From a virus (Duplodnaviria > Caudoviricetes): 64,000 nucleotides of DNA. Each line of letters begins with the position of its first letter. The first letter of the stretch is position 1. The notes beneath the pieces were generated by a model. It was not told the origin of the DNA, made no database searches, and saw only the letters and a program-made list of their open reading frames with translations. This document shows positions 28,555 through 39,458 of the stretch, piece by piece. The stretch is taken from positions 1 to 64,000 of the IMG/VR virus record IMGVR_UViG_3300016667_000797; one strand, 5' to 3'. The translations under genes and the position numbers were made by a program.

Positions 28555-29029
28555 ACTGTATGACTGGGCGGCCGAACAACGCGACTGGGCTAATGCGGAG
28601 GCCGAGCGCCTGGGTGCTCCGGAATCCCCGTTTGTACCTCCGCTAGGTCGTCGACCTGCCTCCGATCAGCTGGAGCGGTTTCTAAACCTGGCCGTGCCGG
28701 ACATGTACGCCTCATGGCAAGCGCTTCGGTTTATTCGCGAGCGGCATGATGAGGTTGTGCGCAACTACGAACTGCAAGAAGAGTGGGATTCCAATCCTGC
28801 CATCTATCACCGCATCAACCTGGTCAAGGGTGCGTTGGTAATCCTGGACAATGCGTTTCTTGCCTACGAGCAGCGCGAAGCTCGCACGGCCACCGCCATT
28901 GACCAGAAAAAGAAAGAGATCATGGAACTGCTCAAGACCGTTTTCAAAGACGGCAAGATCAAGTTCTTGGACACCGAAGAGGTTGAAAAGCTCGGCTTAG
29001 ACAACCTGTTTGACGAAGATGATGAGTGA
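28484..29029 (+). CDS. hypothetical protein
   Basis: AAGGAG SD before the ATG at 28484. Confidence 0.6.
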   Translation: MDISSPPYPKNNTSPQLLYRYLTELYDWAAEQRDWANAEAERLGAPESPFVPPLGRRPASDQLERFLNLAVPDMYASWQALRFIRERHDEVVRNYELQEEWDSNPAIYHRINLVKGALVILDNAFLAYEQREARTATAIDQKKKEIMELLKTVFKDGKIKFLDTEEVEKLGLDNLFDEDDE

Positions 29030-29271
29030 GTTTCACAACTATTTGGCATTTAAGGACTTCTAAAAAATCCAAAACGGATTTGTCAGAAGTCCTTATGCCT
29101 TAAATAGTTATTTTGTTCATTGCAACTAAATACGACGTAACGACTTATGGCGCTGCAGAAAAGCTAAACGCCATAAATCGTTATAAACTTAAAGTTTGTG
29201 GCGCTGACTTGTGTCAGAGCTACGTAATCCTACTACACAGCATAGGTTGCGGAAACCCTAAGGAGAATCTC

Positions 29272-29988
29272 ATGCCCAATCATTGTGAATGTCGGTTGAC
29301 GATCGGTGGTCGCGAGTCGGCAGTCCGTAAGGTGCTGAGCCGAATCAAGTCGACCAACGAGAAGGATGAAGTCACGCATTTTGACTGCAATCAGATCATC
29401 CCCATGCCCGAGTCGCTGGAGGGGACAAGTGCCGGTCCGTGCGAGCAGACGCATGAGGCATTGTTTGGTCAGATCACAGACGCCACGCATTTTACAGAAG
29501 ACCACGACTACGTCTCGGACGCGCTGATCGGTGAGTACCGATTTGAAAACATTCGGGCGTTGAATCATTACGTGACTCGATTCAACATCATCCGCTCTGA
29601 CATGTCTGACGAAGCTCGGATCAGTCAGGTGCGAGCCTGCGAAGAACAGGCCAAGCGCTACGAGTACAACATACAGACGTACGGGTGCCGTACCTGGTAC
29701 GACTGGGCGATTGAAAACTGGGGTACTAAGTGGGGTGCCTATGATGTTTGCGTACCGGAAATCAAGCCACTGTCCAAGGCGGGATGTATCCGGGCCAGTA
29801 TCCGGTTTGATTCGGCCTGGGGTCCGCCGGAGCCGGTGATTCGTCGGATGATCGAGATGTTCCCCAAGTGCCGGGTTACGCTCCGCTACTGGGAGGGCGG
29901 CGCTGGATTTCAGGGCAAAATCTCCGGATACAAGGGCAAAGTGACGGAAGAATATTTGCATGAATATCATGGCCGTCGAGGGGGTTGA
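29272..29988 (+). CDS. YubB/Api92-like ferredoxin-fold protein (DUF1281-like)
   Basis: MPNHC...FDCNQIIPMPESL...WYDWAIENWGTKW...FDSAWGPP...RYWE.G. Confidence 0.75.
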   Translation: MPNHCECRLTIGGRESAVRKVLSRIKSTNEKDEVTHFDCNQIIPMPESLEGTSAGPCEQTHEALFGQITDATHFTEDHDYVSDALIGEYRFENIRALNHYVTRFNIIRSDMSDEARISQVRACEEQAKRYEYNIQTYGCRTWYDWAIENWGTKWGAYDVCVPEIKPLSKAGCIRASIRFDSAWGPPEPVIRRMIEMFPKCRVTLRYWEGGAGFQGKISGYKGKVTEEYLHEYHGRRGG

Positions 29989-30101
29989 CTGGGTGATTAG
30001 ACTACATTATAGTTCTACTCATCAGGATCAGTTGCTGGTCATGAGCCGCAGGCGGTCTGCGGCTTTGGCAGCTAATACACAAGATAAGAAGGAGAAACAT
30101 T

Positions 30102-30455
30102 GTGGTGAAGTTAGCGCAAAAACCGGTTTTTAAGGCCAAAGACAAGGCCTTGCAGCGATTCGAGAACCTGCTGGTGTCGATCACTGGTCAGGTTCAAAGC
30201 GTTGATCGCCACGCTAAGGGTCATTTGTTCTTTGTCCTGAGCGACGCTCAGGTCACGGTGACAGGTCACGGTCCTGTGGATGATGTGAACTACATGCACC
30301 TCGGTTTGTTTGAATGGCAAACCTGGTTGAATCCGTCCATTGTGAAGGTCGGCGCAAAGCTGACTGCGACGGGTCTGGTTGAGCATTACCGTCGTCGTTC
30401 TAATGGCGAGGCGGGTTATGGAATCAGACGCATCATGGAACTACACCCGGGTTGA
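30102..30455 (+). CDS. small OB-fold-like protein
   Basis: SITGQVQSV...KGHLFFVLSD...VKVGAKLTATGLVEHY resembles an OB nucleic-acid-binding fold; AAGGAG SD. Confidence 0.5.
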   Translation: MVKLAQKPVFKAKDKALQRFENLLVSITGQVQSVDRHAKGHLFFVLSDAQVTVTGHGPVDDVNYMHLGLFEWQTWLNPSIVKVGAKLTATGLVEHYRRRSNGEAGYGIRRIMELHPG

Positions 30456-30488
30456 TCCTGGGTTGTTGGGTTGAAGTCGATAGGTACA

Positions 30489-30530
30489 GCTCACGCTAAA
30501 GAAGATTGTGTTGATCTTTTTGGCGTGAGC
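30489..30530 (+). promoter_or_regulatory. leader stem-loop upstream of the RAMP-like gene
   Basis: gctcacgctaaagaagat/atctttttggcgtgagc, a 17-bp stem with one G-U pair, 24 nt before the ATG. Confidence 0.5.
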
Positions 30531-30554
30531 ACAACGAAGGAAGCGATTAGGAAC

Positions 30555-31163
30555 ATGGCAATTGCTACAGAAACCAAGGTTCGGTTGGAAATCAAAGGCA
30601 TTCGTCCGCTGTTGATGCACTCAGCCCGGGCTTGCGATCCGCTTTCCGAAGAAGCGAAAGCGATGAAGCGGCTGACATCCATTCGTAAGAAGTCCGAAGA
30701 AGATATTCGGGCAATCTGCAAAGCCGACTGGGCTGCTGCTTTCTATTCGGACGAAAAAGGTCGCCCGATTGTTCCTGGCGATGTCATGCTTGGTGCGCTC
30801 ATCGCCGGAGCCAAGAAGTTGAAGCTCGGCCCGCAAGCCAAGGCCGGGATCATCGCGGTTGACGACTCGATCGTACTCAATCACGGACACCCTGCGGGCG
30901 AGTCTGCCACCGCGCTGGATTTCTGGAATGATGGTGTCGGTCCTTACGTCGACGCACGTGCTGTCAAGGTTCAGCAAGCTCGGTTGATCCGTTACCGCCC
31001 GCGGTTCAACTTCTGGACAATCAAGCCGGTTGTCTGGCTCTCTGACGAGGTGGACAAGGACATGCTTGAAAACATCGCCGAGACCGCTGGACGTCTTTGC
31101 GGCTTGGGTGATTTCCGACCCAGGTTTGGCGGGTTCGTCGTCGAACGTGTCACCGTGCTTTAA
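30555..31163 (+). CDS. stand-alone RAMP/Cas7-like RNA-binding protein (Vipr-like)
   Basis: N-terminal strand LEIKGIRPLLMHS, central P.....G.L..GAK helix, R.RPRF..W, and C-terminal Gly-rich loop AGRLCGLGDFRPRFGGFVV; immediately followed by the pentamer array. Confidence 0.75.
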   Translation: MAIATETKVRLEIKGIRPLLMHSARACDPLSEEAKAMKRLTSIRKKSEEDIRAICKADWAAAFYSDEKGRPIVPGDVMLGALIAGAKKLKLGPQAKAGIIAVDDSIVLNHGHPAGESATALDFWNDGVGPYVDARAVKVQQARLIRYRPRFNFWTIKPVVWLSDEVDKDMLENIAETAGRLCGLGDFRPRFGGFVVERVTVL

Positions 31164-31187
31164 TCCTGTCAACGCCTGACCAAACGT

Positions 31188-32166
31188 CTAGTTTAGGCTT
31201 GATATGTTAGGGCGCGGTTGGGTTTGCTACGGCGGGGTATGGTTGGGTATGGTGAGGCTCGGGCCGCAAGGCTAGTTTTGGCGAGGTACGGTTCGGCTGG
31301 GCGAGGCAAGGTCTGGCGAGGTCTGGTAATGCCTGGGCCGCAAGGCTAGTTGGGTGTGGTTGGACGCGGCGAGGTAGCGCCTGGTGTGGTGGGGCTTGGC
31401 AGGGCTCGACGTGGGCCGCAAGGCTAGCGAGGTTTGCTCTGGTTGGGCAGGGTCCGGTCTGTCAGGGTCCGGTCTGACAGGGGCCGAGAGGCTAGTTCAG
31501 GTTAGGCGAGCTAAGGTGAGGTGCGTCAAGGCGATGTCTGGCGGGGTCTGGTTGGGGCCGTAAGGCTAGTAAGGCCTGCCGTGGTGTGCAAAGGTAAGGC
31601 ACGGTACGGCGTAGCAAGGTCAGGGCCGGAAGGCTAGTTTGGCAAGGCGTGGTGAGGCCTGTTCTAGGCTGGGCAGGGCAGGGGCCGCAAGGCTAGCATG
31701 GTGTGGTAAGGCACGGACTGGTCTGGTACGGTGAGGACAGGTGAGGACAGGCAAGGTCTGGGCCGTAAGGCTAGTTACGGTGTGACCTGGTTGGGTGAGG
31801 TATGGTAATGCGAGGCGCGGTTAGGCTGGGTCAGGCTTGGGCCGCAAGGCTAGTCCGGTGAGCCATGGTAAGGTCGGGTTTGGCAAGGTCGGGTATGGTG
31901 TGTCAAGGGCCGAAAGGCTAGTTTTGGTATGCCCTGCCAAGGTAAGCCACGGCAAGGTGCGGTTTGGAACGGTTTGGGCCACAAGGCTAGCAAGGCTGGG
32001 TGTGGCGTGGCGTGGCGAGGTATGTCGAGGTCTCGTCAGGCGCGGTCCGGTCTGGTTAGGGCCGCAAGGCTAGTACGGTTTGCCGTGGCGGGGTACGGTT
32101 TGCCATGGCGGGGTTCGGTCTGCCGTGGCGGGGTCAGGTTCGGTGAGGCAAGGGCCGCAAGGCTAG
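31188..32166 (+). ncRNA. 13-unit guide-like array: GGY-NN pentamer runs separated by GGGCC-GNRA-GGCTAG hairpins (VIPR-like vrRNA array)
   Basis: Repeats start at 31261, 31335, 31413, 31481, 31555, 31623, 31682, 31760, 31839, 31907, 31976, 32059 and 32152; spacers are 44-78 nt and parse as a 3-4 nt leader plus 8-15 pentamers. Confidence 0.85.
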
Positions 32167-32196
32167 AGTTCACACAAACCATTTACAGAGGAAAAC

Positions 32197-32727
32197 ATGA
32201 GAATTGATCCACAGTTCATACAGTCGCTCAAAAAGGGCGACTGTTTGACGTTTGACGTCGTTTGTAGCTGCGCGGAGGCATCGGATGCTCTGCCTCGTTT
32301 GCTGAGTGATCAGGATAAGCGCATGTTGGCCTTGAAGGTGGCCAAAAAGATCGAACGTCAGCTGCATAAGATCGGACGTATCTGGACGTTAAGTGTAGGT
32401 AACGATTTTAGTGTGCAGGTTCTGACCGATTCTGACGCACTGACTTATCGACGACGGCAAGGCCGCAGCGGAGTCCGTAAGGTCCGCGGGTGCGCCAAAG
32501 GACTGGGCGGTATCGACACAGCTAACCTGTCCACCACAGAAAAAGTTGTGCATGACCGCGAGTTCACGCTGGCGGCATCTCGCGCGTTGGCATTGCGACG
32601 CCACTTGAGAAACAAAGATCCGTTTGAACGGATCAAACCAACCACAACAGAACAACTGGCCGCCTCACCTAAACAGGTGCGGCTCGATCCGTTTGACAGA
32701 TTCAAACAACCATCACAGGAGTCTTGA
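32197..32727 (+). CDS. array-associated accessory protein
   Basis: Starts 30 nt after the last repeat with a GAGG SD; basic helical LTDSDALTYRRRQGRSGVRKVR..A...IDTANLS..E...HD. Confidence 0.65.
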   Translation: MRIDPQFIQSLKKGDCLTFDVVCSCAEASDALPRLLSDQDKRMLALKVAKKIERQLHKIGRIWTLSVGNDFSVQVLTDSDALTYRRRQGRSGVRKVRGCAKGLGGIDTANLSTTEKVVHDREFTLAASRALALRRHLRNKDPFERIKPTTTEQLAASPKQVRLDPFDRFKQPSQES

Positions 32728-32730
32728 TAG

Positions 32731-33408
32731 ATGAACGCAACGACAACCAAGCTCAAGGTCATCATCACATTGGACGATGACGTAGACACGGACAGTCCGT
32801 TCAAGATGTCCGACTGGTCGCTACGTACGATACGCATGGGCAAGATTCATGACGTGGCGGATGGCTGGACGCTCAACGACGAGTTGGCTGCACCAGTCCT
32901 GGGCACTAACTGCTGGCAGATCAGCTGCTATCGTCATGGCTGCGAGTCCTGGTTCCTGGCGGGTGATCGTCCAGGTTCGTGCAAGTGGGACACGCGGCAG
33001 CTGGCGGGGTACCTGGTCTACAAGGGCGAAGACCCGCTAGAAAATCCCGAAGAAGCAGCTCGAGAGATGATCAAGGAATACGATCTCTGGGCCAATGGCG
33101 ACTGCTACTGGTACCGGATCGAGCAGGAGCACGACACCGGTCGCATGCGTAGGCCACATGCCTGTGAAAGCTGCCAGTGTCCAATGATTTCGGAAGATCC
33201 GGAAATTGAAGAAGAGTCCTATTGCGGCGGCCTGATCGGCTGGGACTACACCAAGGAAACCATTCGGGATGAGCTGCGGGCTATGACCGAGCGCAAGCAA
33301 ATCTCGCCCGAGGCTTACGTCCTCGCGCTCAATATTTCGTCCGAGTTGCGGTACCTGACGCAGGAACTACAAGAAGAGCTTCAGGCGCTAGGGTATTCCA
33401 TCGTCTGA
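32731..33408 (+). CDS. conserved phage hypothetical protein
   Basis: EYDLWANGDCYWYRIE...CGGLIGWDY. Confidence 0.65.
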   Translation: MNATTTKLKVIITLDDDVDTDSPFKMSDWSLRTIRMGKIHDVADGWTLNDELAAPVLGTNCWQISCYRHGCESWFLAGDRPGSCKWDTRQLAGYLVYKGEDPLENPEEAAREMIKEYDLWANGDCYWYRIEQEHDTGRMRRPHACESCQCPMISEDPEIEEESYCGGLIGWDYTKETIRDELRAMTERKQISPEAYVLALNISSELRYLTQELQEELQALGYSIV

Positions 33409-33446
33409 ATTTCGGGCTAAGATAGGCACGACAACCAAACATTTAC

Positions 33447-33735
33447 CCGGTGACTATGCTGATGTACATTTGGTTGGCGCGCGTCGTGTGGGTGGTCCTT
33501 TTTCAGCCGCTTTCGTTCCAAACAGATCAAGGGCAGGATCGGCCCTTGAGCGGCGCACGCCGACCAAATGTACATCAGTATCGCCGGTAGGTGTTTTGCA
33601 TTTCTCCAGTGGTGATGCCGCCTTGTATCTCAGGCGGCGTGTGGTGGGTGTTCGGCTTTCCTTTGACTTTGTAGCCATAGCGCCTCAACCGAATCGAGAA
33701 CAGGATCGGTTCTCGAGCGCCACACAAACCACTGG
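33447..33735 (+). ncRNA. two tandem paralogous structured-RNA candidates
   Basis: Long stems with G-U pairs on the + strand; both carry an 8-bp stem with an identical AGGATCG loop and compensatory stem changes. Confidence 0.6.
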
Positions 33736-33752
33736 ATGTTCAAATCTGGAAT

Positions 33753-34142
33753 TTAACCGCTGACGTGATTCATCTTGCAGTCCGCAAACTCGTCCTGGTT
33801 CACCAGGCTGGTGATCTGGTTCTTCAACGCGACGCGTTGGCGGTTCAGATCGCGCACGACAATGGCACGGCGGCCGACCTCTTCCAGGCCCAGGCGGTCA
33901 TCCAGACCCTTGCGGATTGCCCATTCGGCGTCCCAGATCTGGCCGTTGATCTCTCGCAGGTCGACGATCAGGTTTTGTAGTGGTATGTTGCGTGGGTCGA
34001 CACCGGACCAGTAGTAGGCAATCTGTTTCCGCAATCCTTGTTTGTCCAGCTCGTCATCGGGCAACCGCTCGTATTTGAGCTGGGCAATGGTCAGCCGGTC
34101 GCAGAGCTCGCAGATGGGCATGGCGATGGCTTTCACAGACAT
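33753..34142 (-). CDS. DUF6165-like protein
   Basis: MPICELCDRLTIAQLK...LREINGQIWDAE..IR...RAIVVRDLNRQRVALKNQI. Confidence 0.65.
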   Translation of the reverse strand: MSVKAIAMPICELCDRLTIAQLKYERLPDDELDKQGLRKQIAYYWSGVDPRNIPLQNLIVDLREINGQIWDAEWAIRKGLDDRLGLEEVGRRAIVVRDLNRQRVALKNQITSLVNQDEFADCKMNHVSG

Positions 34143-38963: not shown

Positions 38964-39458
38964 ATGCGGGAACTCAGCGTTCGGATCCGTTTTACAAACC
39001 CAAGTCTGGGAAATGAAAAAGACCCCAAGACCGGGCGTTTCAAGTTCCAGCGCAGCCCGGGTCGAGAAGGAAAAATTCTTTTCCTGGCCACCTGGCACCA
39101 CAGCAACATGAAACTGGCGGCCGAGATGATGGGCCGACACCAGGAATCGGTAAAGCAGATCTGCTGGGACATCGAGGTTGATGCCCAGCTGCGCGAAAAG
39201 TGTCTGATCCGTTGCTTCTATCAGAAGTCACCGGGCGGGCGCGAGCGCTGGAGCCTGCACGAATCACTCATGGCCGGGCAAACCATCGTGGTCAACTGCG
39301 TGGTGCCTGCCGACATCGACGATCAGGATTTCTGGACGTTGATGCAGATTGCCGGGAAGTACAAAGGATTGTCGCCCTGGCAGCCAGGCAAGTACGGCCA
39401 ATATGAGGTGGTCAGCATCCATCCTCGCCGGTCTCGATTTGAGTCCGACCTGGGTTAA
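38964..39458 (+). CDS. second, divergent RAMP/Cas7-like protein
   Basis: VRIRFTNPSLG N-terminal strand, HESL..G and a C-terminal AGKYKGLSPWQPGKYGQYEV Gly-rich loop. Confidence 0.55.
   Translation: MRELSVRIRFTNPSLGNEKDPKTGRFKFQRSPGREGKILFLATWHHSNMKLAAEMMGRHQESVKQICWDIEVDAQLREKCLIRCFYQKSPGGRERWSLHESLMAGQTIVVNCVVPADIDDQDFWTLMQIAGKYKGLSPWQPGKYGQYEVVSIHPRRSRFESDLG

Follow-up and report, generated by a model that had tools for sequence, protein, structure and literature searches.

The overall finding of this analysis is that a 64,000-nucleotide (nt) stretch of DNA from an uncultured freshwater phage (Duplodnaviria; Caudoviricetes) very probably carries a type II-like VIPR (Viral Interference Programmable Repeat) system. 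The stretch, positions 1 to 64,000 of the IMG/VR record IMGVR_UViG_3300016667_000797, is here called the window. The system consists of a vipr gene, an array of 13 guides and a vap1 homologue, all on the + strand. VIPR is a CRISPR-related RNA-guided DNA silencer first reported in 2026 (10.64898/2026.04.26.720920, 10.64898/2026.04.26.720927, 10.64898/2026.10.15.759431). As described there, its parts are a phage-borne RAMP protein (Vipr), an accessory vap gene, and vrRNAs of 9-16 GGY/NN repeats with a structured 3' tail (10.64898/2026.04.26.720920). One Vipr protomer occupies each repeat in a helical filament in which GGY is buried (10.64898/2026.04.26.720927). The NN pairs recognise double-stranded DNA with every third base skipped (the '1-nt skip rule'), and the skipped base falls mostly at the codon wobble position (10.64898/2026.04.26.720920, 10.64898/2026.10.15.759431). 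According to the three preprints, transcription is repressed on binding, and satellites, prophages and other VIPR systems serve as natural targets. Because both genes flanking the window array are homologous to vipr and vap1 of Escherichia phage SUSP1, we assigned the locus to a type II-like VIPR. The 'type II-like' label is putative in that it rests on the vap1 homologue, and the published types are set by Vipr phylogeny.

The repeat array and its two flanking genes

The array occupies 31196-32166 (+) and lies in a non-coding region (31164-32166, +) that has + strand genes on both sides. We delimited its units by splitting this region at the tail motif GGGCCGNRAGGCTAG. There were 13 units (U0 to U12), each with a 3-4 nt linker, 8 to 15 GGY-NN pentamers in register, and the 15-nt hairpin GGGCCGNRAGGCTAG. 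The tail motif was found 13 times on the + strand of the window and not on the - strand, and there were no copies outside the array on either strand of the whole 78,373-nt genome. With the register set by the tail, GG opens 114 of the 147 pentamers and GGY 110 of them, a regularity well above chance. Five of the non-GG pentamers are the part of U6 upstream of a 1-nt insertion, which is read out of frame in this count, and the unit lengths indicate that there is not one continuous register across the array. An earlier note on this DNA, made from the sequence alone, had read 13 strings of NN letters from the units, and a script reproduced all 13, including that of U6 (AA GT GA CT CT before the insertion, TG AG AG after it). 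The same note had placed the array at 31192..32151. The array is real and its limits needed correction: the periodicity begins at 31196 and the last tail ends at 32166, position 32151 being the end of the last tract.

The tail could fold into a 4-bp stem (GGCC/GGCU, with a G-U pair at the base) capped by a GNRA loop. The loops of the 13 tails are GCAA (seven), GTAA (two), and GAGA, GGAA, GAAA and ACAA (one each), and 12 of the 13 are GNRA. With a tail on every unit, 8-15 repeats per unit and the same strand as vipr, the units have the build of vrRNAs.

All of the units lie on the + strand, preceded by a non-periodic leader of 32 nt without GG register (31164..31195, +) between the vipr stop codon and the first repeat. 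U0 (31196..31275) has 13 pentamers, two of them degenerate, and a tail at 31261-31275 with a GCAA loop. U1 (31276..31349) begins with the linker TTTT and has 11 pentamers (tail 31335-31349, GCAA), and U2 (31350..31427) has 12 (tail 31413-31427, GCAA). The ten pentamers of U3 (31428..31495; tail 31481-31495, GAGA) contain an internal 15-nt repeat present 2.6 times. U4 (31496..31569) has 11 pentamers (tail 31555-31569, GTAA) and U5 (31570..31637) has ten (tail 31623-31637, GGAA). The insertion in U6 (31638..31696; tail 31682-31696, GCAA) breaks the register between five and three pentamers. There are 12 pentamers in both U7 (31697..31774; tail 31760-31774, GTAA) and U8 (31775..31853; tail 31839-31853, GCAA), and ten in both U9 (31854..31921; tail 31907-31921, GAAA) and U10 (31922..31990; tail 31976-31990), the ACAA of U10 being the sole non-GNRA loop. 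U11 (31991..32073) has 13 pentamers (tail 32059-32073, GCAA). The last unit, U12 (32074..32166; tail 32152-32166, GCAA), has 15 pentamers and an internal 20-nt repeat present 3.1 times. A 10-nt tandem repeat is present in the tract of U7. Read by the skip rule, the internal repeats of U3, U7 and U12 correspond to target repeats of 9, 6 and 12 bp, respectively, or they are products of slippage.

Neither a sigma-70-like promoter nor an intrinsic terminator was found inside the array, and the array is therefore probably co-transcribed with the flanking genes. A look for RNA runs containing this DNA turned up none. There were no Rfam families in the window at gathering thresholds. Three other runs of seven GG pentamers are present in the genome, at 9938, 45075 and 46586; all are without the tail and look like chance. 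A search for the exact 15-nt tail across IMG/VR gave 38 single scattered matches, which we also took as chance, and blastn of window positions 29000-34000 against phages gave no match.

The gene immediately upstream of the leader, vipr (30555..31163, +), encodes a 202-aa single-RRM RAMP protein (Cas7-like) that matches phrog_4652 (E 4e-42), a PHROG with no assigned function; the protein has no Pfam family. Its AF2 model, based on an alignment of 35 homologues, has a pLDDT of 93.5. The top-ranked Foldseek matches of this model are Csm3, Cmr4 or type VII Cas7 (E from 1.3e-5). With the VIA aligner, the model matches Cmr4 (6s6b_I, Z 10.0, rmsd 3.7 over 152 aligned residues), an E. italicus Csm subunit (9g9a_G, Z 9.8) and Csm3 (6ae2_B, Z 9.0). 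Vipr of the window is 34% identical over its full length to that of SUSP1 (locus L121, 2492-3079) and 39% identical to that of LESphi2, its best match among cultured phages. Residues H17, K33, R138, D177 and R179 (SUSP1 numbering) are invariant in all six aligned Viprs, including that of the window. The position of SUSP1 W178 is F in the window protein and Y or F in the remaining aligned Viprs. In the structural preprint, G1 is read by H17 and D177, G2 by R138 and W178, and Y3 by R179, and K33 contacts the DNA (10.64898/2026.04.26.720927).

There is a further open reading frame (ORF) of 164 aa about 7 kb downstream of the VIPR locus (38964-39458, +), with a RAMP-like first strand at its start. 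Its C-terminal stretch AGKYKGLSPWQPGKYGQYEVV aligns weakly with the G-loop region of Vipr (hhalign 21%, E 0.001), and it has no Pfam or PHROG match. It may be a second, degenerate RAMP-like gene.

Downstream of the array, the vap1 homologue (32197..32727, +) encodes an accessory protein of 176 aa, in which a small N-terminal part resembling a winged helix is joined by a long helical hairpin. In type II VIPRs, Vap1 is a predicted DNA-binding protein of winged-helix-like form. The SUSP1 vap1 (L121, 3082-3522) matches the family of this protein (alignment A4) with an hhalign score of 98.4% (E 6e-15), and homologues of the window protein occupy the matching position in relatives. A second partner family, found 3' of the RAMP gene in other relatives, is homologous as well (A2 against A3, hhalign 97.6%, E 4.7e-12). 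The AF2 model of the window protein (pLDDT 86) starts with a helix-helix-helix-strand-strand arrangement that leads into the helical hairpin. It has no Pfam match, and a comparison with solved structures identified no named fold (best Foldseek E 0.38; best VIA Z 8.0, to coiled coils).

We found no other cas genes in Pfam and PHROGs scans of 58 ORFs (17 neighbours and 41 more in the window). The locus thus contains vipr and a vap gene, with no CRISPR array and no further cas gene in the scanned ORFs. Read as a class 1 CRISPR-Cas array, it would have 'spacers' with a 5-nt period, a 15-nt hairpin as its repeat and a lone RAMP as the sole cas-like gene. The likeness to class 1 lies in the backbone: VIPR shares with Csm3, Cmr4 and Cas7 the RRM core, the G-loop and the thumb, a helical filament on a guide with a structured handle, and periodic base flipping. 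However, the guide period in VIPR is 5 nt instead of 6, the protein reads three guide bases of each repeat, which stay unpaired, and the target period is 3. VIPR also differs from class 1 systems in having no repeat-spacer array, no Cas1/Cas2, Cas5, Cas6, Cas10 or Cas11, and no known acquisition step.

The closest comparison among the studied systems is with the type II VIPR of SUSP1. Both have a lone small RAMP with the same GGY-reading residues, a vap1 gene, a location among replication genes, and no cas or adaptation genes. In both, the vrRNAs lie on the same strand as the gene and consist of GGY-NN repeats that end in a structured 3' tail. In contrast, the four vrRNAs of SUSP1 are divided, with one upstream and three downstream, and every one has its own 5' hairpin and T-rich spacer, whereas the 13 units of the window are uninterrupted and lie between vipr and vap1. 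The SUSP1 tail is about 40 nt with a pseudoknot, and that of the window is 15 nt with a 4-bp stem and a GNRA loop. The VIPRs of Pseudomonas prophages (the P. fulva clade and LESphi2) resemble the window in having vipr, a vap1 homologue and GGC-rich vrRNAs. They differ in that the phages are temperate, three vrRNAs lie upstream of vipr beside cI, and the hairpin tails are longer; their published targets are resident prophage regulators. What is distinctive in the window is the uninterrupted array of 13 guides, the minimal GNRA-hairpin tail, and the turnover of guides between strains described below.

Relatives of the locus and turnover of guides

An alignment-based scan of IMG/VR identified 256 loci with a RAMP relative, of which 80 were kept for analysis and compared with 38 control loci. 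The alignment was needed to detect them; a single-protein query of IMG/VR found no relatives. GG at a 5-nt period (at least 8 of 10) was present in 78 of the 80 related loci and in none of the 38 controls; the periodic stretches are immediately adjacent to the gene, on either side, and on the same strand. A looser caller (runs of at least 6 pentamers) detected arrays in all 80 related loci and in one of the 38 controls. The profile of 3556 pentamers from 253 distinct runs was G (0.96), G (0.95) and Y (0.87) at the first three positions and near-uniform at positions 4 and 5. The length of the runs among relatives ranged from 8 to 27 repeats, with a median of 13.

Using tblastn, we found vipr in 131 cultured-phage records, including SUSP1, SUSP2 and LESphi2. 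The cultured carriers include Felixounavirus and Suspvirus phages (of E. coli, Salmonella and Shigella), the Pseudomonas phages LESphi2 and Medea1, and phages of Gordonia and Mycobacterium; arrays of the same kind are present in phage heid and LESphi2. There were 46 loci in GTDB, from Proteobacteria, Actinobacteria, Acidobacteria, a Uhrbacteria metagenome-assembled genome (MAG) and Aenigmatarchaeota and Nanoarchaeota MAGs, and 36 of the 46 had a run of at least 9 pentamers. Vipr homologues with 27-34% identity, accompanied by at least one run of at least 9 GG pentamers, are present in the Aenigmatarchaeota and Nanoarchaeota genomes (L145, L150, L156, L163) and in the Uhrbacteria genome of the candidate phyla radiation (L161). 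A metagenome scan with Vipr gave one weak match only.

In a related clade, the tail is a 40-nt two-step hairpin. None of its 11 pairs is broken in 39 distinct copies, seven show compensatory changes, and G-U pairs are common; together these properties argue for a structure formed in RNA. The guide tracts between tails in the clade L043-L054 are always 5k+3 nt long (48-103 nt), so that their length is quantised in whole repeats.

The guides differ between strains. In contigs from four other samples, the flanks are approximately 97-99% identical to those of the window and the array is bridged, and the guides are replaced or re-ordered. One of the four contigs is collinear with the array only through U0-U1 (to 31363) and the other three only to 31198; the interior of the array is approximately 530 nt shorter in one of the four samples. 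Any two tracts in register already resemble each other at about 70% through their repeat pattern, so that pieces of the array that match may lack homology. In a related clade, 62 guide tracts come from seven loci with 95-97% identical vipr genes and four more distant loci; 56 of the tracts are distinct and only six are shared between loci. There were 20 differences among nine near-identical tract pairs: 16 in NN, three in Y, one in G2 and none in G1. The array changes much faster than the surrounding genes.

Base skipping and the search for targets

The earlier note had proposed that the NN letters alone specify a gapped target of the form NNx with the skip at codon position 3, which would make targeting blind to synonymous escape mutations. 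The gapped NN code, the wobble skip and the resistance to synonymous escape were already published for VIPR in 2026, and the proposal agrees with the published rule for the family to which the locus belongs. Because the sources are unreviewed preprints from one laboratory, we repeated the test of the core rule with SUSP1. We compared the four SUSP1 guides with 50 kb around the yciI-tonB satellite of E. coli NZ_CP012379, at periods 2, 3, 4 and 5 and with 200 base-shuffled guides. This strain (E. coli PAR) is reported to carry a SUSP1 satellite between yciI and tonB (10.64898/2026.10.15.759431).

At period 3, three of the four guides had matches of 20/22, 27/30 and 18/20, and none of the 200 shuffles was as good. 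The same three guides reached at most 16/22, 19/30 and 15/20 at periods 2, 4 and 5. All three matches fall within the 12-kb satellite. Two of them are in annotated genes, for a tape measure protein and a recombinase, and the skip is at codon position 3 in both. The recombinase match covers approximately residues 76-85, and the position given in the preprint is 79-84 (10.64898/2026.10.15.759431). There was no match for the third SUSP1 guide (L121, 3735-3804) in the satellite region of NZ_CP012379 (19/28, reached by 67 of 200 shuffles); its target must be elsewhere or in other satellite variants. No match to the SUSP1 vrRNA region was obtained by blastn in E. coli genomes. The guides of phage heid have weaker matches in the E. 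coli PAR satellite. One of them (L119, 4728-4787) matches a satellite gene (L168, 27903-27937) at 20/24, compared to a maximum of 18 in 50 shuffles; here the skipped base is that of codon position 2, which departs from the wobble pattern.

For the array of the window itself, we infer the 1-nt skip reading by homology. The earlier note had also taken several of the strings to read as plausible peptides, and this claim did not survive, as any NN string reads so. A codon-phase classifier based on NN composition called 'skip = wobble' for 8 of 13 window guides, 214 of 310 guides of relatives and 204 of 310 column-shuffled guides. Since shuffled guides are classified about the same, the codon-phase test is uninformative.

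We scanned for targets of the window guides at periods 2-6. After masking of the array, no guide of the 13 matched the phage's own genome at 80% or more of its NN letters. The best own-genome match was 18/24 (0.75), which was equalled by 11 of 200 shuffles. The absence of self-matches at this level agrees with the preprint, which reports no self-targets on the source contig of VIPR systems (10.64898/2026.04.26.720920). In 590 kb of fetched loci, the matches of the window guides at period 3 did not exceed those at periods 2 or 4 or those of shuffles. In a search with 248 guides in 0.66 Mb of loci, there was nothing above shuffles. The window guides were also not above shuffles in 1.28 Mb of VIPR-bearing loci (see below) or in five relatives found via the DNA polymerase (113 kb).

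Genomic context, alternative explanations and implications

The neighbourhood of the array consists of replication and recombination genes (SbcCD, helicase, primase and polymerase). The 78-kb contig has genes for a DNA polymerase, a primase, a DnaB-like helicase, a UvsX-like recombinase, SbcCD, a dCTP deaminase and a thymidylate kinase. No recognisable structural genes were seen within the 64-kb window, and the contig may be part of a larger phage genome. Directly upstream of vipr are genes for an Api92-like/DUF1281_C protein (29113-29988, +) and a 117-aa OB-fold protein (30102-30455, +); neither is kept beside vipr in the relatives examined. Farther upstream, a small phage protein (26679-27008, +) has an RNA polymerase alpha C-terminal domain (PF03118, E 9e-10) and is a candidate factor in the takeover of the host's transcription.

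Going by the homologous systems of SUSP1 and P. fulva, the window array would be transcribed and cut into guides of approximately 60-95 nt. One Vipr protomer would bind each GGYNN repeat and bury G1, G2 and Y3, leaving only the NN pairs exposed. We infer by the same analogy that the filament would bind double-stranded DNA, with the target strand pairing with NN and every third base skipped. The effect would be to silence a competing mobile element at the level of transcription; satellites, prophages and other phages are examples of such competitors. As the skipped base is usually the wobble base of a codon, the target would not escape through synonymous mutations.

Several findings weigh against this interpretation. 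None of the 13 guides had a target in their own 78-kb genome or in approximately 1.4 Mb of fetched DNA, with no database-wide search run. When 320 guides from all loci were compared with 1.28 Mb that included 126 VIPR loci, there was no period-3 excess; the counts of matches at 90% or more were three at period 3, none at period 2, two at period 4 and two for shuffles. Some of the guides look damaged or shaped by slippage (the register break in U6, the tandem duplications in U3 and U12, and about one fifth of the pentamers not GG). The tail is just 15 nt, compared to about 40 nt with a pseudoknot in SUSP1, and processing and filament capping could differ. In addition, the mechanism rests on the three unreviewed preprints from one laboratory.

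Some of these findings would also be expected if the locus were a decaying or re-purposed VIPR. The filament would still assemble, and the NN letters would be target-less and subject to drift and slippage, leaving a ribonucleoprotein that acts as a scaffold, as a decoy for a competitor's Vipr, or not at all. This explanation could account for the lack of a target in the DNA scanned, the near-uniform NN composition, the tandem duplications in U3, U7 and U12, the broken register of U6 and the degenerate pentamers. However, both genes are intact, the GGY-reading residues are conserved and all 13 tails are intact. Internal degeneracy is described as frequent in working vrRNAs (10.64898/2026.04.26.720920). 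The guides turn over on a fixed scaffold, with 16 of the 20 differences on NN and none on G1, and the search space was tiny compared to the IMG/VR and pangenome searches that found the targets of other systems. We therefore consider decay or re-purposing to be quite unlikely. An argument against the NN code from the tandem duplications was withdrawn in the light of the published rule and its reproduction on SUSP1.

GG every 5 nt, in units of 10-15 repeats, also resembles the RNA bound by TRAP, a ring that binds 11 triplets. The array could accordingly be an RNA of the TRAP or CsrB type, serving as a protein sponge or bound by a ring, or else a set of two-layer G-quadruplexes, with no guide function. 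Tracts range from 8 to 27 repeats, however, so no fixed ring size fits, and the array is strictly linked to a gene with a Cas7 fold. The NNx rule finds real SUSP1 targets, and the published structures have one protomer per repeat in a helical filament (10.64898/2026.04.26.720927). Ring-binding RNA, CsrA-type sponges and G-quadruplexes were dropped on the Cas7 fold and the variable tract length, and there is only a very slim chance that an explanation of this type is correct. The array could instead act as DNA, as a replication origin, a packaging site or a recombination hot spot, which would fit with its neighbourhood of replication and recombination genes and its hypervariability between strains. 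But the repeat is strand-specific, with the GG register on the vipr strand in all relatives, the G-U pairs and GNRA loops point to RNA, and a 5-bp period is unfit for B-DNA binding. The probability of a DNA-level element seems vanishingly small.

Within the VIPR interpretation, a more far-reaching proposal is that the bare 15-nt GNRA tail and the uninterrupted 13-guide array represent a separate VIPR architecture with its own guide cutting, by a host RNase, Vipr or Vap1 at the hairpin. The near-complete replacement of guides between strains with 97-99% identical flanks would then reflect an active route by which new guides are made or imported, through cassette exchange or templated diversification. 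We regard this proposal as doubtful, with odds well against it. If true, this would bring a virus nearer to having adaptive memory, beyond slippage and drift.

The locus adds a divergent environmental VIPR, with a Vipr 34-39% identical to those that have been studied. It is compact, with 13 guides in 1 kb, 15-nt tails and no internal promoters, which could be useful. The array suggests that a tail of far smaller size may be enough, and that processing can handle long polycistronic arrays of guides. The replacement of guide repertoires far faster than the adjoining genes raises the question of how new VIPR guides arise. Knowing what the 13 guides target would reveal which competitor this phage faces, and probably which host it has.

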